Shown: piece after piece, positions 1 through 11,683 of the stretch
How positions within the stretch are numbered: the first letter of the stretch is position 1
Layout of the letters: every line of letters begins with the position of its first letter
Source: Candidatus Syntropharchaeum caldarium
Lineage (GTDB): Archaea > Halobacteriota > Syntropharchaeia > Syntropharchaeales > Syntropharchaeaceae
Direction of reading: 5' to 3'
Assembly (NCBI GenBank): GCA_001766815.1
Contig: LYOS01000001.1
Location: 150,001-182,000 of the forward strand
Length of the DNA: 32,000 nucleotides
Translations under genes and position numbers: made by a program
The notes under the pieces: generated by a model
Told to the model about the DNA's origin: nothing
Seen by the model: only the letters and a program-made list of their open reading frames with translations
Databases searched by the model: none

Positions 1-1127
1 TCGTTGAAGCGGATTCGGATGATGAGATTGCTGAAACCGACGAGCTTAACAATACGTTGAGTGCGACCGTGGACGTGGTTGAAGCAGCAGGACCAAGTGT
101 TACGGTTGATAGCCGTGATGTATCCCCTGGTGAGACGTTCACGATCAGTATAACCGTCGATCCGCAGGGTGAGGAGATTTACGGAGCACAGTATGACCTT
201 TACTTTGATCCAGCAATCTTGCAGGTTGTGAGCCAGACCGCGGGCGACTTCCTGACACAGGACGGTGCAAGCTCAATCGAAGTCGTGAACACGATCAACA
301 ACACCCTTGGAAAGCTTGAGTACGGTGAGACACGGATGGGAGTGGAGAATGGCGTGACTCGGGCAGGCGTTCTCGCCACGATCGAATTCGAGGCTGTTGG
401 AACCGGGTCAACCGGTCTCACGCTATCAAACGTGCTCTTAAGCGATCCAAGTGCACATGAGATTGGAGGAGTCGTGCTGAACGATGGAGCGGTCAACGTA
501 GCAGGGACGCCACCGCCGCCACCACCAGGTGGTGCGATCGTAACGATCCCTGACGTTGGAGCAACAGGAACGCTCACAGTCCCGATCAGAATCGAGAACG
601 TGACAGACGCAGGCGCAATCCATCTGACACTCACCTATGACCCTCGTGTTGTCATCGTATCAACTGCGTGCTGCAACTCAGACTTTGACACACTCTTTGC
701 AAACATCGAGGATGCAGCAAGAGGATCTATTACCATCATCGCATACCAGACCCAAAACCCAGGTCTGAACGGCAATGTGCTCGTTGCAGACGTGACTTTC
801 ATGGCACTCGGCCCCATCGGATCATCGAGCACCCTTAACCTAGAGGTCACAACACTCACCGACGCAACACCAGAGTGCAACCCGATCCCCTACTCAGTCA
901 GCAATGGAAGCTTCACGGTATTCTTAAACGGCGACGTGAACGGTGATGGCAGGGTCGATGCTGCAGACTGCATGTACCTTGCAAAACACCTGCTCGGGGT
1001 CTCAGGTTTTGAGACGATCGTTGAGGTTGCAGCAGATGTCAATGGTAACGGCGAGATCGAGGCATCAGACTGCATGTACCTTGCAAAGCATCTTGCAGGG
1101 ATTGACGGATTTGAGGAGTTGAAGTAG
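1..1127 (+). CDS. Surface protein, C-terminal part (5' end lies outside the window): CARDB end, cohesin, Pro linker, cohesin, dockerin
   Basis: The reading frame is open from nt 3 (VEADSDDEIAETDELNNTL, the end of a CARDB module), so the TTG at 57 in the ORF track is not the real start. Two cohesin-like modules are present (GETFTISITVDPQGEEIYGAQYDLYFDPAILQV...; TLTVPIRIENVTDAGAIHLTLTYDPRVV...), separated by PPPPPPGG. The C-terminus has two Ca-binding dockerin repeats, DVNGDGRVDAADCMYLAKHL and DVNGNGEIEASDCMYLAKHL. Stop TAG at 1125-1127. Confidence 0.85.
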   Translation, partial: VEADSDDEIAETDELNNTLSATVDVVEAAGPSVTVDSRDVSPGETFTISITVDPQGEEIYGAQYDLYFDPAILQVVSQTAGDFLTQDGASSIEVVNTINNTLGKLEYGETRMGVENGVTRAGVLATIEFEAVGTGSTGLTLSNVLLSDPSAHEIGGVVLNDGAVNVAGTPPPPPPGGAIVTIPDVGATGTLTVPIRIENVTDAGAIHLTLTYDPRVVIVSTACCNSDFDTLFANIEDAARGSITIIAYQTQNPGLNGNVLVADVTFMALGPIGSSSTLNLEVTTLTDATPECNPIPYSVSNGSFTVFLNGDVNGDGRVDAADCMYLAKHLLGVSGFETIVEVAADVNGNGEIEASDCMYLAKHLAGIDGFEELK

Positions 1128-1135
1128 AATAAGAA

Positions 1136-4100
1136 ATGGTGAAATGTGTGAGGCGATTGATAGCGGTATTTTTAATCTCGTTATTTATATTCCCGTTGGT
1201 ATCTGCAGATCTCAGAAAGGATCTCACAGATAACCTCCCTCTAAGTGTAAGATCTCCTTCTGGTACTGAGACCCTGATCTGCGGTTACCTGTTTGAGAGG
1301 GGATCTACAGGCAGTGTAAGGATCACAAACCTCAACACCAGTTTAAGCTGGGATGCAAGGCTACTTGAGTCAGAGCCAGACTTCTACTACCTCTATCTCG
1401 ATGAAATTGAGCTTAAAGCAGGAGATATGCTCAGGCTCAACGCAACCTCAGGTGATGAATCGGTCGTATTAATTCATACCGTAAACCAGAGTGAGATCGA
1501 TGAGCATCTGGTGTGGCTTGATATCATCGAGGATCTTGCGATAACAGAGATCACAATACCAAACAGAATTACAAAAGATATCAACACCACTATCCACGCC
1601 GTAATTGAGAATATTGGACTGATACCAGTCGTTGTACCCTTCAATATTACATTCAGCGTTGATGGAGAACTCATAACTACTACCTCTTTTACAGAAGTTC
1701 CTTTAAACGCCAGTGAGAACTTTACCGTAGAATTTTATTGGACTCCTCTGGAATCCGGGATACACAACATCACAATCACTGTGGATCCGAATCATGAAAT
1801 TATATCAGAGACGAATGAATCGAATAATCGAATGAAGAAAAGCGTGTCTGTTGCTGAACTACCTTCGTTTTATGTGCCACTGGACTTTCCCACGATTCAA
1901 GATGCGGTGGATAATGTAACAATTAACGGAACCACGATTTATGTCGCAAGCGGCACGTATAACGAGAATATAATGATTCAAAAGCAGATCACACTTCTGG
2001 GAGCGGATATGAATGATACAATCATAGACGGAGGTGGGAACGATACATTAAGGCTTTTTGCGAATAATTGTGTCATCAGAGGTTTTTCGATAATTAATGG
2101 GAGCACAGGTATAAAGATCGAATCCAATGGCAATAAAATCTTTGAAAATTGGATTTATAACAACTCCTGCGGCGTAAATATCACCGGATTAAATAATACC
2201 GTTTATCATAATAATCTGAATAATGTTCAGAACGGATTTGATACCGGTAATAGTTCGTGGGACGATGGAAGGGAAGGAAACTACTGGAGCGATTGTACCG
2301 GCGATGATTTCGATCTCAATGGGATTGTAGACACGCCTTATGAATGCGGGTGGGTAACGGATCGATATCCTTTAGTTTCTCCATATGTACTGCACAGAGA
2401 CCCGGCAATCGCGTATCTCACTGTCCCCACATCTATTTATGTGAATGAAACGAATACTATCTTTGTGGGCATTGCCAATTACGGCACTTCAGAAGTGGCA
2501 AGCAATCTCTCACTCAAACTCGGTGGCACTATTCTGAACATGACGATTTCTCTACCATATAAGAGCATAAACGCTGTTTATTTCTGCGTGACTCCGAACC
2601 AGATGGGGACAATAAACCTAACAGCGGAGATAGAGGCATGCAATGAAGATTCAAATAGAGCAAACAACCGGATGAGCGTGAATGTTACGGTAATTCCTTC
2701 GCCTTTTAAGCGCCTTTACAATTTTGATAACGAAACAACTATGGCGGAATATTATAAATATCAACTTCCTGAAAGCAGAACGAATGCTCTGGATTACTTA
2801 GCAATGCAGCAGAATTCTGACGGCGGCATCGGTCAGGGTGGCTATTCGACAGATCTGGCTATTATAGCGGTATCATCTGCTGGAGAGAATCCGCAGGAGT
2901 TTGCGAGACTGAATTCGTCGCTTACAGATTATTTAAAAGCGCATCCGCCTCAGCATGACCTGACTTTAATATCTCGCTATGTGCTTGCGATTATCGCTTC
3001 TGGTGAGAATCCGCGTGATTTTGGTGGTAAAAACTATCTTGCGATGATTCAATCATTCTTCGATGGAGAACAGTTTGGAATTGAGAAGAATATCGTGGAT
3101 GATGCGTGGGCTGTGCTTGCACTTACCGGAGCAGGATATGGCAATGACACAGAAATTATGCGAACTGAAAGGAATTATATTCTCAGGTGTCAGAATGAGA
3201 GTGATGGCGGATGGCCGTATTTTGAGAATGGAACGAGCTCAATCGATGTAACTGCGATAGCATTAGAAGCTCTGGTTGCTTCTGGTATAGCTGTGGATAA
3301 TAGTTCGATACAGAATGGCACGAAATATTTGGAAAAAAATCTTGTGAAGAATCAATGGGAAGAGGGGATGGGGCAGACAGACCCACTGCCAGAATCCAAT
3401 CTGAAAAATTATGCTCATTCAGTCCAGGCAATCGTTGCTGTTGGAGGGAATCCGATAGATGGAAGCTGGGATTATTCGCAGAGTGCAGCTACATACTACG
3501 GGATTGAAAACCCATACAACCCGCTACTTCTGCTCTTGGGACTCGAAGAGAAGTCGGGCGATTTTGAAGGTGGATTCGCGTTCACATTTAAAGATTCTTA
3601 TCCCGAACCTAAATGGACATCAATGGCACTCCCCTCGCTGTTCGCAAAGCCATATCCTTCGATGTGCACGTATAGCCGGGTGCTATCAGACATAAAGCCC
3701 ATTCATATAGGGACACGGGCTTGCTACACCAATGTTACAAATATTATCAATGCAACAATCAAGAACAACGGCGGGATATTCAACGTGAGTCTTCTTGTGG
3801 ATGGTGCCGAGGTTGACCGCGCGAGAATTGTGGAGACGAATTCAACTGCATTATCGCGGGTGGAATTCAGATGGCTGCCAGAGAAAGAAGGGGAATATAA
3901 CCTCACCGTTGTGGCAGATTCTGAGAATTCAATAGAAGAGAATAATGAGAGCAATAACTGCATCGGCCGCGTGGTCACTGTGACGAAGCCAGACCTGCAC
4001 CCCAGGACAGAACTGCCAGCATTCTATGTCAATGTGACAAACAGAATAGAAACAGAAGTTTTAGGATACGGCGAGGGATTCAACGTATCGCTTCTTATAA

Positions 4101-7036
4101 ATGGAAGCGTTGTAGATAAAGCCGAGAATATCAGCTCTTATGGCTTTAATAAAACAACGTTATACTGGAAGCCAAACCAAACGGGTAACTACACTCTTAG
4201 ACTCATCGCTGATTCGGAAAACGATGTATTTGAATCCGATGAGAAGAATAACACCATAGAAGAGAATGTCAGTGTAATACTGCCCGACCTATATCCTCAG
4301 AATATAAGCACTATGATACTGTACACCGATACCGAGAACATCATAGATGTCAGCATCAACGGCTCAGCAGAAGGATTTAACGCGACTTTATTTGCAAACG
4401 GAACGATTGCAGATAAAATCGAGAACATTTCATCTTATAACGTGGCGAATATCAGTTTTTCGTGGAACCCCCTGCTGGCAGGTGTTTACAACCTCACAGT
4501 GATGGTAGATGCTGATGATGAGATAGAAGAGACGAACGAAACGAACAACAATCTGAGTCGTATTGTAACCGTAGAGAATCGAGAAGCGCCATACATAAAA
4601 CTACTCGCTCCGATAGGTGGTGAATGCTGGAGCGGTGTGCAGACGATAAAGTGGAGTGCAACCGACCCGAACGGCGATGAACTAATAATAAACATCAGCT
4701 ACAGCCCGGATGCAGGAATAATGTGGCATCCAATTGCAAGCAATCTTGAGAACACAGGCTATTATAATTGGAGCACCGAGTACATGCTGGATGGATATGA
4801 TTATAAGGTAAAAGTAGAAGCATTTGATGGGAATTCTACCTCAGTGGATATCTCAAAAGATGTATTCACAATCTACAACAGGAGATCGTATGAGGGGGCA
4901 CCAAGCTTCCATTATAATGCGGGTTTCTCACTCTCGGAAGCGCCGAATACGAATAAAACTGCGTGGATAACCGAAGATATTGGTGCATGCCCTTCCACTT
5001 CTCTTATTGTTGCCGATGGTAAGGTCTTTGTCTACTGCTATGACAGTGTGAAGGCACTGGACGAATTAAATGGCAGCACAGACCTAAATGGCAGCACAAA
5101 ACCCATCTGGAGCACATCCATAGATAAGGCTGTTTATGGCTCGTGGGCGACTGCGGCATACTACGACGGATCGGTATTCATAGCTTCAGGAAATCATGTT
5201 TACCGAATTAGTGCTAAAGATGGAAAGATAGAATGGAGGTTCCAATTCCCTGATGGGGGGTGCAGTGTGAATAGTGGTCCGTGTGTTGCATACGGAAATG
5301 TATATGTGGGTTCATGGAACGGGGGGCACTATTACTGCTTGAATGACTCAACTGGAGAAATAAAATGGCAATTTCCTCCAAAAGGTGAAAAGAAACTGGA
5401 TCACGCACAATCAACACCAGCAGCACATAACGGAATGGTCTTCTTCGGTGATTTTACAGGCGGACCGAAATCAAAGGTTTTTGCCGTTGATGGACTTACA
5501 GGTGAAGAGATATGGAATCAAACAGTTTCGTGGAGTGTCTGCGGCTCCGTTACGATTGCGCACAATAAGGTATACCTCATGACATATAATTTCTATGGTT
5601 CAGGAGAGTTTTATGCACTCAATGAAAATAACGGAAGCATTGTCTGGCAACATACGATTGCAAGGTCCGATTCTACACCGGCGCATGCGTATGGAAACAT
5701 CTATGTCTGTGGTGGATGCCCAGGTTATGAGCGGTGTAGAACATACTGTCTGAATGATGCAGACGGAGGAAACGAGACCTGGAATGTGCCTGATTGGGGG
5801 ATATGGACATATTCACCGATGGTTGCAGATAAGAAAGTATTTATTGGTAAAGCAGAGGGACCGGGGATGGACAGTATGCTCCCAGCAGGGATGTCTGCTC
5901 GTAATGCCTTTACCGGAGAAGAGATATGGCGTTCAGATCTCGGCGGTGGTTCACCCGCGATTGTGCATGGGAGGGTATATACCGTGGGGGGTGTTAATGC
6001 AACGGGCAGAGTTATCTGTTTCGGCTCTACAAACCAACCAGACCTCGAACTGAGTAATCTCACTACGGTTCCAAAGTCAGATATCTATGTCGGTCAAAAT
6101 GTTTCAATCAATGTGACACTCAGAAATATTGGCTCTGGTAACGCTTCTGCATTTAACGTTTCTTTACGAGTTAATGGTGAGATAGAAGCGGAAAAAAGAA
6201 TTGATGATGGACTTAATGTAAACGTTAGCATGCCTGTGAATTTCTCGTGGACTCCAGTAGAAGCTGGGGAGTATCTTATCATCGTTGAAGCGGATTCGGA
6301 TCACGAAATTACCGAGCAGGTTTCAATGCCAGACAATAATAAGGTTAGTAGACCATTAACGGTAAAAGAGTGGCTGGACTTGGCAGTGGAGGATATTGAT
6401 TATTATCCAACGGAGGTTCACGTTGGGGATATTGTGAATATAACACCCTCTATTACGGCGGTAAACCTCGAAGGGGAAAGTGTTGGGGTTGAGTTTAAAG
6501 TTGATGATGAAAGTAAAGAGACAAAGAGAGGCGTAGTTAACGGAGAGCAGATAACTGTAAACTTCACATGGAATGCTTCGAGTCCTGGCGGGTATAACCT
6601 GACGATAGTCGCCGATCCGGGTGGTGGGATAGATGAAGTTAACGAGACGAATAACGAGACGACAATAGTGGTGGAAGTGATGCCAACGCCAACACCAACA
6701 TCCACTCCAACTCCCGGCTTACCCCACGGTTATGGCGGTGGTGGAGGTGGTGGCTCCGGGATATTTGACTGGGGCGAGTTCTTCGGATCGGGTACAGGCA
6801 GTGAGGGCAATGAAACAGGTGAATTTACGATCCCGATAAATGAGACAGAATCTGTGATTGAAGAAGATTCATCGCGTGTGAATGGCTATCCAATGGGTGA
6901 GGAGACCGGAGGAAGTGCGGGCGGTGGAGGAAAGATCTCTTATATCTGGATCCTCATCGTAACCCTGACGCTTGCCCTTGTGATCTATGGTTACTGGCGA
7001 GAGTCGAGGTTTATCGGTAGGAGGAGGAGAAGATGA
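1136..7036 (+). CDS. Giant (1966 aa) secreted, C-terminally membrane-anchored mosaic surface protein
   Basis: One uninterrupted ORF with an N-terminal signal peptide (MVKCVRRLIAVFLISLFIFPLVSA|DL). CARDB-like modules lie at nt ~1531-1857, ~2400-2700, 3695-4577 (x3) and ~6039-6680 (x2), most ending in a D..N.I.E.NE.NN-type motif. A NosD/PbH1-type right-handed beta-helix spans ~1866-2380 (IYVASGTYNENI, GFSIINGSTGIKIESNGNKIFENWIYNNSCGVNITG). Alpha/alpha-toroid prenyltransferase/terpene-cyclase-like repeats span ~2783-3480 (QQNSDGGIGQGG, CQNESDGGWPY). An Ig-like module spans ~4580-4880. PQQ/BamB-like propeller blades span ~4990-6030 (G.V[YF]......A.D..tGe..W repeated). The PT linker, Gly run, TM helix ISYIWILIVTLTLALVIYGYW and RRRRR tail occupy 6682-7033. 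Confidence 0.9.
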   Translation: MVKCVRRLIAVFLISLFIFPLVSADLRKDLTDNLPLSVRSPSGTETLICGYLFERGSTGSVRITNLNTSLSWDARLLESEPDFYYLYLDEIELKAGDMLRLNATSGDESVVLIHTVNQSEIDEHLVWLDIIEDLAITEITIPNRITKDINTTIHAVIENIGLIPVVVPFNITFSVDGELITTTSFTEVPLNASENFTVEFYWTPLESGIHNITITVDPNHEIISETNESNNRMKKSVSVAELPSFYVPLDFPTIQDAVDNVTINGTTIYVASGTYNENIMIQKQITLLGADMNDTIIDGGGNDTLRLFANNCVIRGFSIINGSTGIKIESNGNKIFENWIYNNSCGVNITGLNNTVYHNNLNNVQNGFDTGNSSWDDGREGNYWSDCTGDDFDLNGIVDTPYECGWVTDRYPLVSPYVLHRDPAIAYLTVPTSIYVNETNTIFVGIANYGTSEVASNLSLKLGGTILNMTISLPYKSINAVYFCVTPNQMGTINLTAEIEACNEDSNRANNRMSVNVTVIPSPFKRLYNFDNETTMAEYYKYQLPESRTNALDYLAMQQNSDGGIGQGGYSTDLAIIAVSSAGENPQEFARLNSSLTDYLKAHPPQHDLTLISRYVLAIIASGENPRDFGGKNYLAMIQSFFDGEQFGIEKNIVDDAWAVLALTGAGYGNDTEIMRTERNYILRCQNESDGGWPYFENGTSSIDVTAIALEALVASGIAVDNSSIQNGTKYLEKNLVKNQWEEGMGQTDPLPESNLKNYAHSVQAIVAVGGNPIDGSWDYSQSAATYYGIENPYNPLLLLLGLEEKSGDFEGGFAFTFKDSYPEPKWTSMALPSLFAKPYPSMCTYSRVLSDIKPIHIGTRACYTNVTNIINATIKNNGGIFNVSLLVDGAEVDRARIVETNSTALSRVEFRWLPEKEGEYNLTVVADSENSIEENNESNNCIGRVVTVTKPDLHPRTELPAFYVNVTNRIETEVLGYGEGFNVSLLINGSVVDKAENISSYGFNKTTLYWKPNQTGNYTLRLIADSENDVFESDEKNNTIEENVSVILPDLYPQNISTMILYTDTENIIDVSINGSAEGFNATLFANGTIADKIENISSYNVANISFSWNPLLAGVYNLTVMVDADDEIEETNETNNNLSRIVTVENREAPYIKLLAPIGGECWSGVQTIKWSATDPNGDELIINISYSPDAGIMWHPIASNLENTGYYNWSTEYMLDGYDYKVKVEAFDGNSTSVDISKDVFTIYNRRSYEGAPSFHYNAGFSLSEAPNTNKTAWITEDIGACPSTSLIVADGKVFVYCYDSVKALDELNGSTDLNGSTKPIWSTSIDKAVYGSWATAAYYDGSVFIASGNHVYRISAKDGKIEWRFQFPDGGCSVNSGPCVAYGNVYVGSWNGGHYYCLNDSTGEIKWQFPPKGEKKLDHAQSTPAAHNGMVFFGDFTGGPKSKVFAVDGLTGEEIWNQTVSWSVCGSVTIAHNKVYLMTYNFYGSGEFYALNENNGSIVWQHTIARSDSTPAHAYGNIYVCGGCPGYERCRTYCLNDADGGNETWNVPDWGIWTYSPMVADKKVFIGKAEGPGMDSMLPAGMSARNAFTGEEIWRSDLGGGSPAIVHGRVYTVGGVNATGRVICFGSTNQPDLELSNLTTVPKSDIYVGQNVSINVTLRNIGSGNASAFNVSLRVNGEIEAEKRIDDGLNVNVSMPVNFSWTPVEAGEYLIIVEADSDHEITEQVSMPDNNKVSRPLTVKEWLDLAVEDIDYYPTEVHVGDIVNITPSITAVNLEGESVGVEFKVDDESKETKRGVVNGEQITVNFTWNASSPGGYNLTIVADPGGGIDEVNETNNETTIVVEVMPTPTPTSTPTPGLPHGYGGGGGGGSGIFDWGEFFGSGTGSEGNETGEFTIPINETESVIEEDSSRVNGYPMGEETGGSAGGGGKISYIWILIVTLTLALVIYGYWRESRFIGRRRRR
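3695..4577 (+). repeat. Three tandem CARDB-coding modules, period 294 nt (98 aa), inside the giant gene
   Basis: Module boundaries PDLHP (nt 3989) and PDLYP (nt 4283) are exactly 294 nt apart. The modules align at protein level, for example GFNVSLLINGSVVDKAENISSY versus GFNATLFANGTIADKIENISSY. They are diverged and are not recent DNA copies. Confidence 0.8.
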
Positions 7037-7071
7037 TGAGTATCGACAGGGAAGAGAACACCTGTAGCTCA

Positions 7072-7263
7072 TCAGTAAGCCTCGTCGTGATGAACGAGCC
7101 TGTCGAAGATGAGAACCCTGAGATTCTTGAAACGATGGATCATCTCCTCGTCACAGGCAGAAATCTGGTTTATCTTCATTTGAACTCTTCTAAAAAATGC
7201 CATGTCTTTCTTTTTGATCTTTATCATCGTTCGTTTGAGTTCGTCGGAGATGCAGATCTTCAT
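7072..7263 (-). CDS. Small hypothetical protein (63 aa), N-terminus paralogous to the upstream RHH-like gene
   Basis: Its ATG overlaps the stop of the upstream gene in an ATGA arrangement (7260-7263). The N-terminus KICISDELKRTMIKI parallels KVVIPDKLKERMSRI of the neighbour. No family was recognised. Confidence 0.4.
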   Translation of the reverse strand: MKICISDELKRTMIKIKKKDMAFFRRVQMKINQISACDEEMIHRFKNLRVLIFDRLVHHDEAY

Positions 7264-7568
7264 AATTCATTGCACCATTTATCGAACTCTTCCAGGCTCA
7301 TGGGCTTTCTCTTACCGGATTCAAGTTCTTTCAATACCTCCTCTGTAGATCTAACGACTTCCTTAGCCAGAGAATCTTTGACCTCCTTCTCATCATCCGG
7401 TATTTCAGATATTTCAGCAATTTTCCTTCCCATCTCAAGTTCTTCTATATCATGTAATCTTTCAGAGATAGCTTTTAATGCTACTGCTGGCCAATCAACC
7501 CAATCTATTCTGGACATTCGCTCCTTCAGCTTGTCAGGTATCACAACCTTTATCTTTGCCATTCCCAT
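7260..7568 (-). CDS. Small charged protein (102 aa), putative ribbon-helix-helix DNA-binding or antitoxin-like protein
   Basis: The N-terminus has a beta-strand then helices pattern (KIKVVIPDKLKERMSRI..PAVALKAISERL), followed by an acidic coiled region. A TATA-like box lies ~26 nt upstream (7594-7603), which fits a leaderless mRNA. The antisense 208-aa ORF is Ser-rich low complexity and was rejected. Confidence 0.6.
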   Translation of the reverse strand: MGMAKIKVVIPDKLKERMSRIDWVDWPAVALKAISERLHDIEELEMGRKIAEISEIPDDEKEVKDSLAKEVVRSTEEVLKELESGKRKPMSLEEFDKWCNEL

Positions 7569-7593
7569 CGCCTATGGCTATATCGGTCATTCG

Positions 7594-7603
7594 TTTATAA
7601 ATA
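7594..7603. promoter_or_regulatory. Near-palindromic TATA box TTTATAAATA in the divergent intergenic region (RHH-like gene / ExbB-like operon)
   Basis: The box is centred ~30 nt from the minus-strand ATG (7568), consistent with a leaderless transcript. It is ~57 nt upstream of the plus-strand ATG (7656), which has its own GGAGG at 7646-7650. Confidence 0.45.
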
Positions 7604-7655
7604 GCTTCTCACAGATGGAGAACTCAACGTTTACTGTTAAACAAAGGAGGAAAAT

Positions 7656-8252
7656 ATGATAGATATATTTGCAACGCTCCAGTCATCGATATACTACATC
7701 TCAACATACCTTCTGTATCCAGTGATCATTGCACTGCTTATCTGTGTTGGCTTCATCCTCGTTGACACAGGGTCTTTTCTCTACGAGATATACAGAAGAA
7801 AGAGGTTACACTTTGAGTTTGAGGATGAAGTTATCTCAGGCAGGTTTGTTGCGCTATTCATGAAAGAGCTTGAGCACATGGATCATGAAGATAGATACTT
7901 TGATCTCAAGCTCCAGAAGCTCCTGAATGATATGGAGTATCTCATATCAAAGCGGCTTGAGCTGACGAAGCTCATATCAAGGATTGGTCCCATGTTCGGT
8001 CTTATGGGAACTTTAATCCCGATGGGACCTGCTTTGATAGGGCTTACTCACGGTGACATCGAGACCCTTGCAGATAACCTCATCATCGCATTCGGGACAA
8101 CAGTCGTGGGGCTTCTGGTCGGTGCGGTATCTTACTCGATCGCGATGGTCAGAACGCGCTGGTATGATCAGGAGATGGATGATATGGAGTTTGTATGTGA
8201 GATTGTGACGGGAGGTAGTCAGGATGAAATACATGAAGAAGAGAAGAGGTAA
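7656..8252 (+). CDS. MotA/TolQ/ExbB-family proton-channel protein (3 TM)
   Basis: There is an N-terminal TM helix (YLLYPVIIALLICVGFILV) and a cytoplasmic helical region. The C-terminal TM pair carries family motifs IGPMFGLMGTLIPMGPAL and AFGTTVVGLLVGAVSYSIA. A strong RBS (GGAGG) sits 5 nt upstream of the ATG. Confidence 0.85.
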   Translation: MIDIFATLQSSIYYISTYLLYPVIIALLICVGFILVDTGSFLYEIYRRKRLHFEFEDEVISGRFVALFMKELEHMDHEDRYFDLKLQKLLNDMEYLISKRLELTKLISRIGPMFGLMGTLIPMGPALIGLTHGDIETLADNLIIAFGTTVVGLLVGAVSYSIAMVRTRWYDQEMDDMEFVCEIVTGGSQDEIHEEEKR

Positions 8253-8568
8253 GAAGAAGCGATCCTTTGAGGAGGATCCGATGAGTGGTGTTGCAAATCT
8301 ATTCGATGTTGCGATGGTCTTTGCGGTTGCGCTTCTGATAGCGCTTGTATCTTCCTACCATATTCAGGAGCTTCTTGATCCGACCAGGGATATCACAATC
8401 GTCAAGAACCCTGGACAGCCTGATATGCAGGTCATCGTGAAGGAGGGGAAGGAGATAAAGACGCTGAATGTGACAGAGGAGATGAGTGAAGTTGAGATTG
8501 CAGGAACTGTTGGAACGATCTACAGGACACCGGATGGTGGAATGGTATATGTGCCTGAGGGTGGATGA
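8224..8568 (+). CDS. ExbD/TolR-like single-pass partner (DUF2149-type)
   Basis: It has a basic N-terminus, then the TM helix ANLFDVAMVFAVALLIALV with Asp28 (nt 8305-8307) in an ExbD-like 'xDV' context, then a short beta-rich C-terminal domain. GGAGGT at 8211-8216 lies 7 nt before the ATG at 8224. The gene overlaps the ExbB-like gene by 29 nt. Confidence 0.75.
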   Translation: MKYMKKRRGKKKRSFEEDPMSGVANLFDVAMVFAVALLIALVSSYHIQELLDPTRDITIVKNPGQPDMQVIVKEGKEIKTLNVTEEMSEVEIAGTVGTIYRTPDGGMVYVPEGG

Positions 8569-8751
8569 GATGAGATCATTATCCATAAAAATAAATTAAA
8601 AAAGTTCAAAATGTAGAATCCGCGACTGACAGATTTTCAAAAGCTTAAGGGTGTGGTAAGGAATAAGAGGTAAAAGATTGGCAGAAACAGCCTGGAAAAA
8701 CATATATACATTGACCGAGTACTGATGTTTTATTAATGAGAAGGTTACTTT

Positions 8752-10260
8752 ATGAAAGGGGGATTATCCATCCTTGCAGAGAAAAACAATGCAAATGGTT
8801 TAGAGCCTGTACAGAAGACGAAAGAAACGGGTAAACAGGCATATCTGATACTTGGGTGTGGAGCGATAGGACTTGCGACAGCGAAAGGTTTAAAAAAGCA
8901 AGATTATACAGTTCTGATCGTTGATATAAATGAAAAGGTTGTTGAGAGCCTTAGAGAGCAAAATATGGACGCCTGTCTGGGCGATATGAGCGATCCCAAA
9001 TTTTTAGAGACAGTACTTGCTAATAAGCAGTTCAATGCAATCCTGATTCTTGGAGATAATTCTGCATCAAATCAGCAGGCGCTCAGAACAATCAAAAAAA
9101 TCACTCCAGAGACGTACGTCGTTGTACGTGCAATCGATCCTGTTGAGCAAGAAGATCTGAAGGAACTGGGTGTGGATGCACTGGTTCTACCTGCTGAGAT
9201 TGTTGCAAAACATATCATCAGAACGCTTGAAGGTGTTGCACTCTCAAAGCGTACAGATAAACTCATAAAATTGCTGGCTGGTATGAAAGGTAGCAAGCTT
9301 GGCATCGTTCTTCACGACAGTCCTGATCCTGATGCGATCGCAAGTGGACTTGCGCTCAAGTATATCGCAGAAACGACAGGTACCGATGCAGAGATCCTTT
9401 ATCATGGGGAAGTCGGGCACCAGGTCAATCGCGCGTTTGTGAACCTCCTCAATATAAATATGCGGCGTATCGAGGAGGTTGACCTTGATGAGTTTGCAGG
9501 CTTTGCACTTGTTGACACATCACCCGGTGCAAATAACTCACTTCCACCAGAGATCGAACCCGACATCATCATAGACCATCACCCACCCATGAAAACCGAG
9601 TTTTCATCCTATTATGTCGATGTGCGTCCAGGAACTGGATCCTGTTCCACAATTCTTACAAAATATCTTCAGCAACTGGAACTACCAATCGAGAAGGAAC
9701 TTGCAACAGCTCTGATTCATGGAATAAGAACTGATACACAGGAATTTAAGCGAAACACCAGCCCCGCAGATCTCACCGCAGCAGCGTTCCTTTACCCACT
9801 CGTGGATCACACACTACTTGGTCAGATTGAGACACCTCCGATGTCCACCGAGACGCTGGACGTGCTTGGGGAGGCGATAAGGAGACGAACGGTGAAGGGG
9901 AGTTATCTCGTCTCAAACGTCGGTTTTATCATGGATCGAGATGCACTGGTACAGGCAGCAGATTATCTTCTCAACCTTGAGGGAATATCCACCGTACTTG
10001 TATTTGGGCTCAGTGAAGATAAAATTCACATAACCGGGCGTAACAAAGATGTCCGGATAAATATAGGGGCCGTTCTTCAGGAGGCGTTTGGTGATATCGG
10101 TACTGCTGGTGGACATTCAACAGCAGGGGCTGCACAGATACCACTGGGTGTATTCAGCGGTATGAAGGATAAAGAAAGCCTGCTGAAGCTGGTTGGTGAC
10201 GCGGTTACCATGCGTTTCTTCTCAAAGATCGGGATCGAAAACGGCGATAAAACAACCTGA
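8752..10260 (+). CDS. TrkA-N (NAD-binding Rossmann) / DHH / DHHA1 phosphoesterase fusion
   Basis: Rossmann motif ILGCGAIGLATAKGL. DHH motifs HDSPDPDAIAS, VDTS and IIDHH. DHHA1 motif GGHSTAGAAQ near the C-terminus. Confidence 0.85.
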   Translation: MKGGLSILAEKNNANGLEPVQKTKETGKQAYLILGCGAIGLATAKGLKKQDYTVLIVDINEKVVESLREQNMDACLGDMSDPKFLETVLANKQFNAILILGDNSASNQQALRTIKKITPETYVVVRAIDPVEQEDLKELGVDALVLPAEIVAKHIIRTLEGVALSKRTDKLIKLLAGMKGSKLGIVLHDSPDPDAIASGLALKYIAETTGTDAEILYHGEVGHQVNRAFVNLLNINMRRIEEVDLDEFAGFALVDTSPGANNSLPPEIEPDIIIDHHPPMKTEFSSYYVDVRPGTGSCSTILTKYLQQLELPIEKELATALIHGIRTDTQEFKRNTSPADLTAAAFLYPLVDHTLLGQIETPPMSTETLDVLGEAIRRRTVKGSYLVSNVGFIMDRDALVQAADYLLNLEGISTVLVFGLSEDKIHITGRNKDVRINIGAVLQEAFGDIGTAGGHSTAGAAQIPLGVFSGMKDKESLLKLVGDAVTMRFFSKIGIENGDKTT

Positions 10261-10270
10261 CCCAGATCGA

Positions 10271-11683
10271 TTAGCAAAACTTCAGCATATTCACATCAAG
10301 GCTCCTGAGATTGACAAGCGCAGCACATCCCGGCACAGGCGTTATATTAAGCTTTTTCTGGTATTCGGTTTGTCCCTGCCATGTACCAGCGTTTATGGTG
10401 GTCACACCCCTGTATCTACCAACTCCGACTGTGTGTGTGTGCCCACAGAGCAGGATATCGGGAATTCGTTCGATAACGCCTGAATCGATAACAGACGGGA
10501 CAATCGGTACTTTTCCACCATAAATCGGTGCTATATGCCGCCGTTTCAGCATCTCGATCATCGCACCTTCTGGATGATCGTATGAAAGACCAGGTATTGC
10601 CATTATCAGGTCATCAAACGACTGTCCGTGATAGATCAGAACAGAAACACCATCAAGCTCAACCATGGCAGGGTTGCTCACAAATATCGTATTCTTATGT
10701 TGCTTGAACAGAACCTGAATTCGTTCTGGGAGGCGGGGCTGGGGATCTGCCTGCCGCACTGCATCATGGTTTCCGGGTGCGATTATGATTGTGATCTCAT
10801 CTGGAATCTCTGCGAGTGATCTGGCAACCCTCCTGTATTGCTCGGTGAGATCAGGGATGAGAAGTTCCTTCTCCTGATCTGGATAGACCCCGATTCCATC
10901 GACCACGTCCCCTGCTATCACGAGATACTTCACCTTTCTGGAGAGTTCGATCTCTCGTTCACCACCAAGTTCCCCCCGCATCCATGCGATAAATCGCTCC
11001 CATGCATCGTCGATAAATGTGCAGTTCCCCATGTGAATATCAGAGATAAAAACCGCAAAACTCTCCACATCTGCATGATTCGGTGTGAAATTACTGAAAA
11101 TATCTGGGAAGAAAATCTTATCGGCTACAAAAAGTTCTCCCTTCTTTGTCAGTGATCCCTGGACTCCTATCACCTCATCGAGGACAATATTGACATTCAG
11201 TTTGTCTTTCATAAGGAGCACGGGAAATCTGCCAGTCATATCTTCAAGATCAAGAATTGTGTGGCCGTTTGGAGTCTTGTTGATCTCTGAGACGACCCCG
11301 ACAATCCCGATTTGATCCACGTCCAGTTTTTTAACCCGCTCGAGGCTTTTTATACTTCGTACATTCAACCTGCTCTGCAGAATGCGTGAGAGCCGTTCGT
11401 ATCTGTCCCGAAATCGCTTAACAAACCCCCATTCATCGACCGCATCGATCTGGACATCTGATAAATCCAGCAGAACATTAAATGTACCTCTATTTCTCTT
11501 TCCATTCGCTTCACAGAAGCAGGAGATGTCTGAAGGACAGATGACAATTGTGGATTCATCGATTGAACTAAGGATCTCTTTAATCTGTGAATCTTCGACC
11601 ATCTGCTCGCAGAGCATTCGCGCAGCATCAGGGTGTAACTGGTATCCATGCTTTGCAAACCGCTCAACTATCCCCTCTATCAT
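10271..11683 (-). CDS. polB: DNA polymerase II (PolD) small subunit DP1
   Basis: An OB-fold region is followed by calcineurin-like phosphoesterase motifs (FISDIHMGN, GDVVDGIGVYP, GNHD, GHTH). The ATG lies 1 nt after the cofC stop. Confidence 0.9.
   Translation of the reverse strand: MIEGIVERFAKHGYQLHPDAARMLCEQMVEDSQIKEILSSIDESTIVICPSDISCFCEANGKRNRGTFNVLLDLSDVQIDAVDEWGFVKRFRDRYERLSRILQSRLNVRSIKSLERVKKLDVDQIGIVGVVSEINKTPNGHTILDLEDMTGRFPVLLMKDKLNVNIVLDEVIGVQGSLTKKGELFVADKIFFPDIFSNFTPNHADVESFAVFISDIHMGNCTFIDDAWERFIAWMRGELGGEREIELSRKVKYLVIAGDVVDGIGVYPDQEKELLIPDLTEQYRRVARSLAEIPDEITIIIAPGNHDAVRQADPQPRLPERIQVLFKQHKNTIFVSNPAMVELDGVSVLIYHGQSFDDLIMAIPGLSYDHPEGAMIEMLKRRHIAPIYGGKVPIVPSVIDSGVIERIPDILLCGHTHTVGVGRYRGVTTINAGTWQGQTEYQKKLNITPVPGCAALVNLRSLDVNMLKFC

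Follow-up and report, generated by a model that had tools for sequence, protein, structure and literature searches.

Which protein does a MotA/TolQ/ExbB-type motor work on in an archaeon that has no outer membrane? The question is posed by two overlapping genes, at positions 7656-8568 of a 32-kb stretch of DNA (the window) from the butane-oxidising archaeon Candidatus Syntrophoarchaeum caldarius. The upstream gene encodes the A subunit of such a motor, with three transmembrane (TM) helices, and the downstream gene a small single-pass B subunit of the DUF2149 (HmuV) family. The original prediction, made from the nucleotide sequence, described them as an ExbB/ExbD-type pair with no known partner and an unexplained output. 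The HmuU/HmuV family to which the pair belongs, however, adjoins CobN/HmuS-like proteins in bacteria and methanogens, and in the lineage of Ca. Syntrophoarchaeum the pair is operonic with the gene for a giant secreted surface protein upstream of it, which the original prediction had not connected with the motor. We argue that the pair is an ion-driven motor of the MotA/ExbB superfamily and that its output is probably this giant, which it would drive through the C-terminal module of the giant, as a Ton-like force transducer.

That DUF2149 genes occur together with TolQ-like genes is already known, and so is the hmu operon. In the hmuYRSTUV haem operon of Bacteroidota, DUF2149 is HmuV and stands beside the MotA/ExbB protein HmuU, as in PG1555/PG1556 of P. 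gingivalis and BT_0491/0492 of B. thetaiotaomicron. Papers from 2022 to 2026 still term DUF2149/HmuV uncharacterised (PMC9425974, PMC12094164, PMC13227078), and in a survey of 2022 arCOG03208/DUF2149 figures among the conserved but uncharacterised families of methanogens, with the remark "linked to TolQ" (PMC9425974). In the searchable literature we found no account of a giant-linked motor clade in alkane oxidisers and anaerobic methanotrophic (ANME) archaea, of a C-terminal handle shared by the motor partners, or of a motor whose target is the neighbouring protein and not a TonB-dependent receptor; nor did it yield anything on the function of DUF2162, archaeal ExbB motors or TolQ/ExbB proteins of ANME archaea.

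The motor pair and its A subunit

The two open reading frames (ORFs) overlap by 29 nt, and each is preceded by a GGAGG ribosome-binding site (RBS), as had been predicted (Table 1). The small protein is identical (100%) to SCAL_000183 of Ca. S. caldarius, which carries a second DUF2149 paralogue, SCAL_001014. This match, together with the archaeal markers PolD DP1 (small subunit), aEF-1alpha and CofC in the window, bore out the assignment of the host to the archaea.

The A subunit matched Pfam PF01618 (MotA_ExbB) with an E-value of 4e-12 and 46.4 bits, against a curated cutoff of 22.9. A profile built from 21 orthologues retrieved ExbB (5sv0, 1.1e-4), TolQ (4e-3) and MotA (0.015) from the sequences in the Protein Data Bank (PDB), and hhalign aligned the A subunit with E. 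coli ExbB over 167 columns spanning TM1-TM3 (probability 88.8%, E 2.5e-6). A subunits of the MotA/ExbB type are built from TM1, a cytoplasmic helical domain and a TM2/TM3 hairpin that carries the pore threonines; in ExbB these are T148 and T181, which face Asp25 of ExbD. Their counterparts in the alignment are T119 (8010-8012), within the invariant TM2 segment GLMGTLIPMGPAL, and T149 (8100-8102), within the invariant TM3 segment AFxTTVxGL. Both threonines are invariant in 21 of 21 orthologues. By these matches and residues, the product of the upstream gene is a true MotA/TolQ/ExbB-family protein, in agreement with the original prediction.

Some variation within the family was seen in this subunit. 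The MotA proteins of the Syntrophoarchaeum/GoM-Arc1 sub-clade miss about 20-40 residues of the cytoplasmic domain that all other orthologues have (alignment columns ~100-150; residues ~48-60 in the window protein), and they carry an acidic C-terminal extension, DEIHEEE, encoded where the DUF2149 gene overlaps. Two loci, L080 and L082, encode MotA-like proteins of 455-487 amino acids (aa) with an extra portion of about 250 residues (ORF ends near 10000 and 2120, respectively).

The B subunit is a DUF2149 protein with a conserved membrane aspartate

The B subunit matched Pfam PF09919 (DUF2149; also COG4744 and arCOG03208) over profile positions 1-92 of 92 with an E-value of 2.6e-30. It has a basic N-terminus, a TM helix at aa 22-44 (nt 8287-8355) and an ectodomain at aa 55-114, and it is predicted to be a single-pass, N-in protein. 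Asp28 (codon 8305-8307) lies near the cytoplasmic end of the TM segment VANLFDVAMVFAVALLIAL and is kept in 34 of 34 archaeal orthologues. In the wider family, which comprises 841 clusters at 50% identity (E<=0.001), 140 of 146 cluster representatives retain it, in the context VANLFD(V/I/A)AMVF with the core N-L-F-D. The alignment of DUF2149 with E. coli ExbD and TolR by hhalign placed D28 on D25 of ExbD (VANLFDVAMVF vs VTPFIDVMLVL), over 19 TM columns only and with a probability of 0.9%; the ExbD/TolR profile was shallow, with eight sequences, as the ExbD search had given only near-identical enterobacterial sequences. The predicted position of Asp28, equivalent to that of ExbD D25, and its conservation among orthologues were thus upheld, the former within the limits of this TM-only alignment.

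Beyond the membrane segment, the likeness to ExbD ends. The periplasmic domain of ExbD and TolR is an alpha/beta fold, a five-stranded sheet packed by two helices. The ectodomain of DUF2149 is predicted to be a five-stranded, all-beta domain unlike it: an AlphaFold2 model from a 116-sequence alignment, obtained from a single-chain fusion of the tail of the giant in the window to DUF2149 with 115 DUF2149 homologues, showed the TM helix followed by five beta-strands and no packing helices, with a predicted local distance difference test (pLDDT) score of ~80-92 for DUF2149. An earlier monomer model from 34 sequences (pLDDT 62) was too weak to use. Of three ExbD/TolR features tested, DUF2149 lacks two, a profile match and the alpha/beta domain, and possesses the third, an N-in TM helix with an acidic residue. 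We rejected DUF2149 as an ExbD/TolR homologue, as Pfam, PDB profile, hhalign and Foldseek searches were all negative apart from the TM segment. A relation to GldM or ZorB was likewise detected neither by the PDB sequence profile nor by Foldseek. The original prediction of an "ExbD-type" pair has therefore to be divided: the large protein matches MotA_ExbB as proposed, the small one matches DUF2149 and no ExbD/TolR profile, and what falls is the membership in ExbD, not the motor analogy.

The motor genes are linked to those of two classes of anchored extracellular proteins

We compared the gene neighbourhoods of 80 loci from species-representative genomes, retrieved with the DUF2149 profile and analysed by ORF calls and custom hidden Markov models (HMMs), and examined Pfam-annotated contexts for five relatives. 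These 80 loci are the best matches to the DUF2149 of the window and hence a biased sample. The gene for MotA lies directly upstream of that for DUF2149 in the window and in about 70 of the 80 loci, and the loci fall into two principal types.

Type A, with about 40 loci, has the gene order DUF2162-MotA-DUF2149-CobN-like, where the last gene encodes a protein of 1,400-2,500 aa with a signal peptide. The hosts are Methanoculleus, Methanolobus, Methanococcoides, Methanohalophilus, Methanosalsum, ANME-3 and one Desulfobacterium genome, and the cluster amounts to hmuSTUV minus the outer-membrane components. In Type B, comprising 18 non-redundant loci and the window, a giant of 1,500-3,100 aa is followed on the same strand by MotA and DUF2149. 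These loci come from Ca. Syntrophoarchaeum butanivorans, GoM-Arc1 (Ethanoperedens, Argoarchaeum), ANME-2c (Methanogaster), Methanophagales (ANME-1) and related metagenome-assembled genomes. Within this biased sample, all Type B loci with a named lineage belong to syntrophic methane or alkane oxidisers (ANME-1, ANME-2c, GoM-Arc1, Syntrophoarchaeum) and none to a methanogen. The stop codon of the giant and the start codon of MotA overlap by 4 nt (ATGA) in most Type B loci, with gaps from -4 to 0 nt among the relatives. Custom HMMs for CobN and DUF2162 matched in no Type B locus, and PF02514 (CobN) and PF09930 (DUF2162) gave no hit anywhere in the 32-kb window.

The division is mirrored in the motor itself, so that motor and partner class have diversified together. 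The closest relatives of the DUF2149 in the window are those of Type B loci (57-96% identity), and in a neighbour-joining tree of concatenated MotA and DUF2149 all Type B motors form one clade apart from Type A. Moreover, two motors of different type coexist in several genomes, and each adjoins its own partner. The loop between strands 3 and 4 of DUF2149 also differs with the locus type, reading E-x-E-I/V-x-G in Type B and GG-x-G in Type A; as a speculation, this loop is a candidate specificity determinant. The survey across archaea proposed together with the original prediction thus revealed a placement that is not random, with a strongly conserved linkage of giant and motor.

A third architecture was observed in Methanolobus and relatives (L066, L070, L072, L076, L085 and L054; around positions 6000-10300 of these loci), where a secreted protein of about 870 aa precedes MotA-DUF2149. 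This protein ends in IPAPGI, a TM helix and a basic tail, lacks GYxM and has a weak ArlF-like match (4e-4). Its gene follows glycogen-debranching- and glycosyltransferase-like genes, as judged by sequence without a family-library check, and the motors of these loci nest within the CobN-linked clade.

The partners share a C-terminal module

The giant in the window opens with a signal peptide (aa 1-24) and carries seven CARDB repeats, a beta-helix of the NosD/pectinesterase kind, an alpha/alpha toroid that resembles prenyltransferases, a beta-propeller of the PQQ type and a Thr/Pro linker, besides a conserved C-terminal module with a TM anchor. CARDB repeats are common to all Type B giants and a propeller to most; the remaining domains vary, and the C-terminal module is kept. 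The partners of both classes are secreted and have one TM helix at the C-terminus, with a basic tail after it. In the CobN partners, the sequence YVEGYEM (variants GHVM, GQVM, GKIM and GRVM) stands about 22-25 residues before the TM helix; in the giants, KGYPMG (variants GYQM, GYPF and GYKF) stands 17-22 residues before it. G(F/Y)(W/R)R often follows the TM helix in both classes, and the CobN tail of the bacterial locus L083 carries KGYEM.

In the non-redundant set, drawn from all loci, of C-terminally anchored proteins with 200 aa or more, G[YH]x[MF] was found 17-25 aa before the C-terminal TM helix in 42 of the 60 encoded next to a motor and in 4 of the 41 others. Of these four, one is the giant in the window itself and two are encoded by CobN genes on the opposite strand. 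Furthermore, an HMM built from the tails of CobN partners alone ranked the tail of the giant in the window second among 797 non-CobN tails (E 0.006), in a list headed mostly by Type B tails. In a separate observation, locus L081 (11881-18030) encodes, in gene order, a 257-aa protein, DUF2149, a 508-aa protein and a giant of 2,049 aa, the tail of which reads NVEGYLMKG, followed by a Gly-rich segment and a TM helix; the handle motif thus recurs in a different gene order.

An insertion separates giant and motor in the window

In the window, the junction of giant and MotA is split by an insertion of 623 bp with a 16-nt direct repeat on either side, AGGAGGAGAAGATGAT (7022-7037) and AGGAGGAAAATATGAT (7645-7660). 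The repeat is the RBS and start-codon junction itself (RBS plus ATGAT). The giant gene ends in ...AGATGATGA, the overlapping start seen in relatives where MotA begins with MM(D/N)IF, as the comparison of the junction with that of locus L007 showed, and the ancestral ATGATGA is retained. Because of the repeated junction, the retained ATGATGA and the overlap in relatives, we infer that the ancestral state was an overlapping giant-MotA-DUF2149 operon, in which the insertion regenerated the RBS and the start codon of the motor genes. Judged by its two antisense ORFs (Table 1), the insertion resembles a small cassette of the toxin-antitoxin kind, placed exactly at the overlap of giant and MotA. The serine-rich ORF running through it on the forward strand is probably a shadow ORF whose start codon was once that of MotA.

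A proposed mechanism and its weighing

Taking together the observed family memberships, the conserved residues and operons, the tail motif that the partners share and the parallel diversification of motors and partner classes, we propose that the A and B subunits would assemble as a 5:2-type complex in which DUF2149 takes the role of ExbD/TolR, with its protonatable Asp28 facing T119 and T149 of the A subunit. Flow of H+ or Na+ via D28, T119 and T149 would drive a movement of the DUF2149 dimer, and the ectodomain or the TM helix of DUF2149 would engage the C-terminal module of the giant, consisting of the GYPM motif, a Gly-rich spacer, the TM helix and the basic tail. Force or a conformational change could then be passed to the giant outside the cell, where no ATP is available. 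The target protein would thus carry its own "TonB" element at the C-terminus. In the sister clade of methanogens, some bacteria and the hmu operon, a like motor may be wired to secreted, C-terminally anchored chelatases or de-chelatases of the CobN/HmuS type. All this suggests that archaea use membrane ion gradients for mechanical work on extracellular proteins.

Several points weigh against this proposal, which we nevertheless consider probable. The motor analogy rests on the A subunit, the gene order and the aspartate, because homology of DUF2149 to ExbD/TolR is not demonstrable: PF02472 (ExbD/TolR) matched none of 34 DUF2149 members even at E<=10, ExbD, TolR and MotB were absent from the PDB sequence-profile matches of DUF2149 at E<=10, and Foldseek of the DUF2149 model against the PDB gave no significant fold match (best E 0.43) and no ExbD, TolR or MotB. 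The sequences within each partner class are related, so that the counts represent non-independent events. The E-values of the ranking by CobN tails are marginal (0.006-0.05) and partly driven by TM and basic residues, the motif is degenerate in the giants of GoM-Arc1 (GRPFVKM in L008 and L009), and some CobN tails read GQVM or GKIM. In the AlphaFold2 model of the tail fused to DUF2149, the juxtamembrane segment reached a pLDDT of 50-58 with no confident docking, the segment having no alignment depth and the model no MotA5:DUF2149(2) context. Since the operon is interrupted in the window, coupled expression is no longer guaranteed there. Finally, the literature records no experimental function for any MotA/ExbB-DUF2149 member.

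The interruption might even mean that the adjacency has lost its meaning in this genome, the pair being a stand-alone ion channel or a decaying remnant. Although the insertion with its antisense genes does break the operon, and the downstream neighbours of the motor genes differ in every relative, we find this very hard to believe: neither ORF is damaged and both have strong RBSs, the insertion restored the RBS and the start codon, the invariant residues are all kept, the closest species (96% and 87% identity) retain the motor genes, and the linkage of giant and motor spans at least four lineages. It is also improbable, in our judgement, that the pair belongs to a small-molecule or metal transporter, in which it would form or energise a channel importing a ligand captured by the surface protein and exert no force on a partner. 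Reviews do presume a role of HmuT/U/V in transport of haem or iron across the inner membrane (PMC12094164, PMC13227078), the third gene of the CobN-linked clusters, DUF2162, is a "predicted transporter" in Pfam, and CobN as well as beta-propeller and NosD-like domains are able to bind metals or cofactors. The Type B loci lack DUF2162, however, so that such a transporter would have to consist of no more than a 3-TM and a 1-TM protein, and the feature common to both partner classes is a membrane anchor with a juxtamembrane motif rather than a ligand-binding domain. To our knowledge, the A5B2 pore carries ions only, and no substrates, in every studied member of the superfamily (ExbBD, TolQR and MotAB).

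A further explanation would have the motor serve the biogenesis of the giant, that is its export, insertion, anchoring, release or quality control, with the GYxM-TM-basic module as the recognition signal. GldLM and PorLM provide a precedent, as they energise type IX secretion of cargo with a C-terminal signal. The shared tripartite module is formally like a sorting signal, the secreted partners are unusually large (1,400-3,100 aa), and translational coupling would suit a dedicated chaperone or usher. Still, we regard this explanation as unlikely. The motif of known sorting signals directly adjoins the TM helix, whereas that of the partner tails stands 17-25 residues before it, and no curated model of an archaeosortase or exosortase signal (PGF-CTERM, PEF-CTERM, VPXXXP-CTERM and others) matched. 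Searched against NCBIfam at E<=1, the final 140 aa of the giants in the window and in L015 had no match, and on the CobN tails of L004 and L005 the CobN model alone matched and no sorting-signal model. Moreover, the partners have ordinary N-terminal Sec signal peptides, and the same loci encode many further giant CARDB proteins that are anchored by other means and lack a motor. Set against these alternatives, force transmission to the giant through its C-terminal module remains the reading that we prefer.

Comparison with known systems

The hmu operon resembles the locus in that a MotA/TolQ/ExbB gene is followed by DUF2149 and adjoins the gene of a very large extracytoplasmic protein, HmuS, with a C-terminal membrane helix. 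In contrast, the locus in the window lacks CobN/HmuS, DUF2162 (presumably the counterpart of HmuT), HmuY and the TonB-dependent receptor HmuR, its host has no outer membrane, and its partner is an unrelated CARDB/beta-propeller giant encoded upstream, whereas HmuS is encoded downstream. The Type A clusters are closer, with orthologous motor subunits (50-61% identity in DUF2149), the same invariant residues and a partner having both a signal peptide and a GYxM-TM-basic tail. They differ from the window in their separate motor clade, in the extra membrane protein DUF2162 and in their partner, a class I chelatase homologue encoded downstream after a gap of 50-190 nt, where the Type B giant is encoded upstream with a 4-nt overlap.

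With ExbB-ExbD-TonB and TolQ-TolR-TolA, the pair shares a homologous A subunit with pore threonines, the order of the B gene after the A gene and a single-pass, N-in B subunit with an equivalent Asp; in both cases, energy is proposed to reach an extracytoplasmic protein via a membrane-anchored element. However, its B subunit has no detectable homology to ExbD/TolR beyond the TM helix, and its ectodomain is predicted to be all-beta. The system in the window also has no separate TonB/TolA, TonB box, outer membrane or peptidoglycan, and the anchor is C-terminal and a part of the target. As had been predicted, the window contains no TonB/TolA and no archaellum genes, and family searches of it also found no OmpA-like family; with no TonB/TolA-type family in the 32-kb window and a monoderm archaeon as host, the pair does not belong to the Ton or Tol systems. 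GldLM/PorLM and ZorAB (Zorya) set precedents for a B subunit with a non-ExbD extracytoplasmic part and for an output that is neither a flagellum nor a TonB-dependent transporter, but their partners and cellular context are entirely unlike those of the system in the window.

Implications

A more general claim can be ventured only tentatively, and we hold it with considerable doubt: archaea, and Bacteroidota via hmuSTUV, might possess a distinct class of motors, composed of MotA/ExbB and DUF2149, that energises large extracellular proteins through a GYxM-TM-basic handle with no TonB-like adaptor, with CobN in methanogens and the giants in ANME and alkane oxidisers as targets. If so, the methanogen motor would power ATP-independent insertion or removal of metals by secreted CobN-type chelatases, replacing the AAA+ engine of the ChlI/ChlD type. 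In syntrophic methane- and alkane-oxidising archaea, giant CARDB/beta-propeller surface proteins would be driven by a sub-class of their own, with a possible role in contacts between cells, or between cell and matrix, in the consortia. The giant-linked version, confined within our sample to ANME-1, ANME-2c, GoM-Arc1 and Syntrophoarchaeum, points to an energised giant surface protein in consortia that oxidise methane or short alkanes.

The proposal bears on three questions: what MotA/ExbB-type motors do in organisms without an outer membrane, flagellum or peptidoglycan; what role HmuT, HmuU and HmuV play in the haem operon widespread in gut and oral Bacteroidota, where HmuV has been described as having no homology to known families; and how extracytoplasmic class I chelatase homologues work without ATP and why they are abundant in archaea, which was raised as unexplained (PMC12583661). 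The characterised HmuS of B. thetaiotaomicron is likewise predicted to have N- and C-terminal anchoring helices, and the membrane fraction is required for its de-chelatase activity, whereas ATP is not (PMC12583661). The three questions merge into a single testable one, for which the shared C-terminal handle offers a concrete element to mutate.

Features of the locus and divergent members of the family

Table 1. Features in and around the motor locus, in coordinates of the 32-kb window.
Feature	Position	Strand	Basis or remark
Cohesin and dockerin protein, running off the left edge of the window	3-1127	+	Stops 8 nt ahead of the giant gene
Giant surface protein, secreted, 1,966 aa; proposed output of the motor	1136-7036	+	Pfam, NCBIfam, conserved linkage
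GYPM juxtamembrane motif of the giant, aa 1917-1920	6884-6895	+	13 residues before the TM helix as annotated; offset -17 in the hydrophobicity scan, whose TM window sits a few residues further on
C-terminal TM helix of the giant, ISYIWILIVTLTLALVIYGYW	6935-6997	+	Hydrophobicity scan
Basic cytoplasmic tail of the giant after the TM helix, RESRFIGRRRRR	6935-7033 (TM helix and tail)	+	
ORF, 208 aa, serine-rich	7033-7659	+	No family match; overlaps the giant stop (ATGA) and the MotA start (ATGA)
Insertion of 623 bp splitting the giant/MotA junction	7038-7660		Repeat search, spacing 623 nt
ORF in the insertion, 63 aa	7072-7263	antisense	No family
ORF in the insertion, VapB-like	7260-7568	antisense	NCBIfam VapB 2.7e-6, below the curated cutoff
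GGAGG RBS of the MotA/ExbB-like gene	7646-7650	+	5 nt ahead of ATG; read from the sequence
MotA/TolQ/ExbB-family A subunit, 198 aa, 3 TM	7656-8252	+	Pfam PF01618
GGAGG RBS of the DUF2149 gene, within the 3' end of the MotA gene	8211-8215	+	8 nt ahead of ATG
DUF2149 (HmuV-family) B subunit, 114 aa	8224-8568	+	Pfam PF09919
TrkA_N (RCK/NAD-binding) and DHH/DHHA1 phosphoesterase fusion	8752-10260	+	184 nt downstream of the motor genes

Two neighbours of the giant and the motor genes were considered and discarded as components of the system. The cohesin/dockerin protein is not a core fourth component, as it lies upstream of the giant in only 3 of about 12 loci; cohesin-type proteins precede the giants in L010 and L015 and are absent from this position in most other Type B loci. 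Nor is the TrkA_N-DHH gene a conserved motor component, since its position is not kept in relatives.

Divergent DUF2149 proteins of 209-217 aa were observed on bacterial-looking contigs with no recognisable adjoining MotA/ExbB (L088, 9001-9654; L089, 525-1154), and one of them also matches YicC-like_C. The contexts of the DUF2149 family may, judging from these two loci, extend beyond the motor pair.

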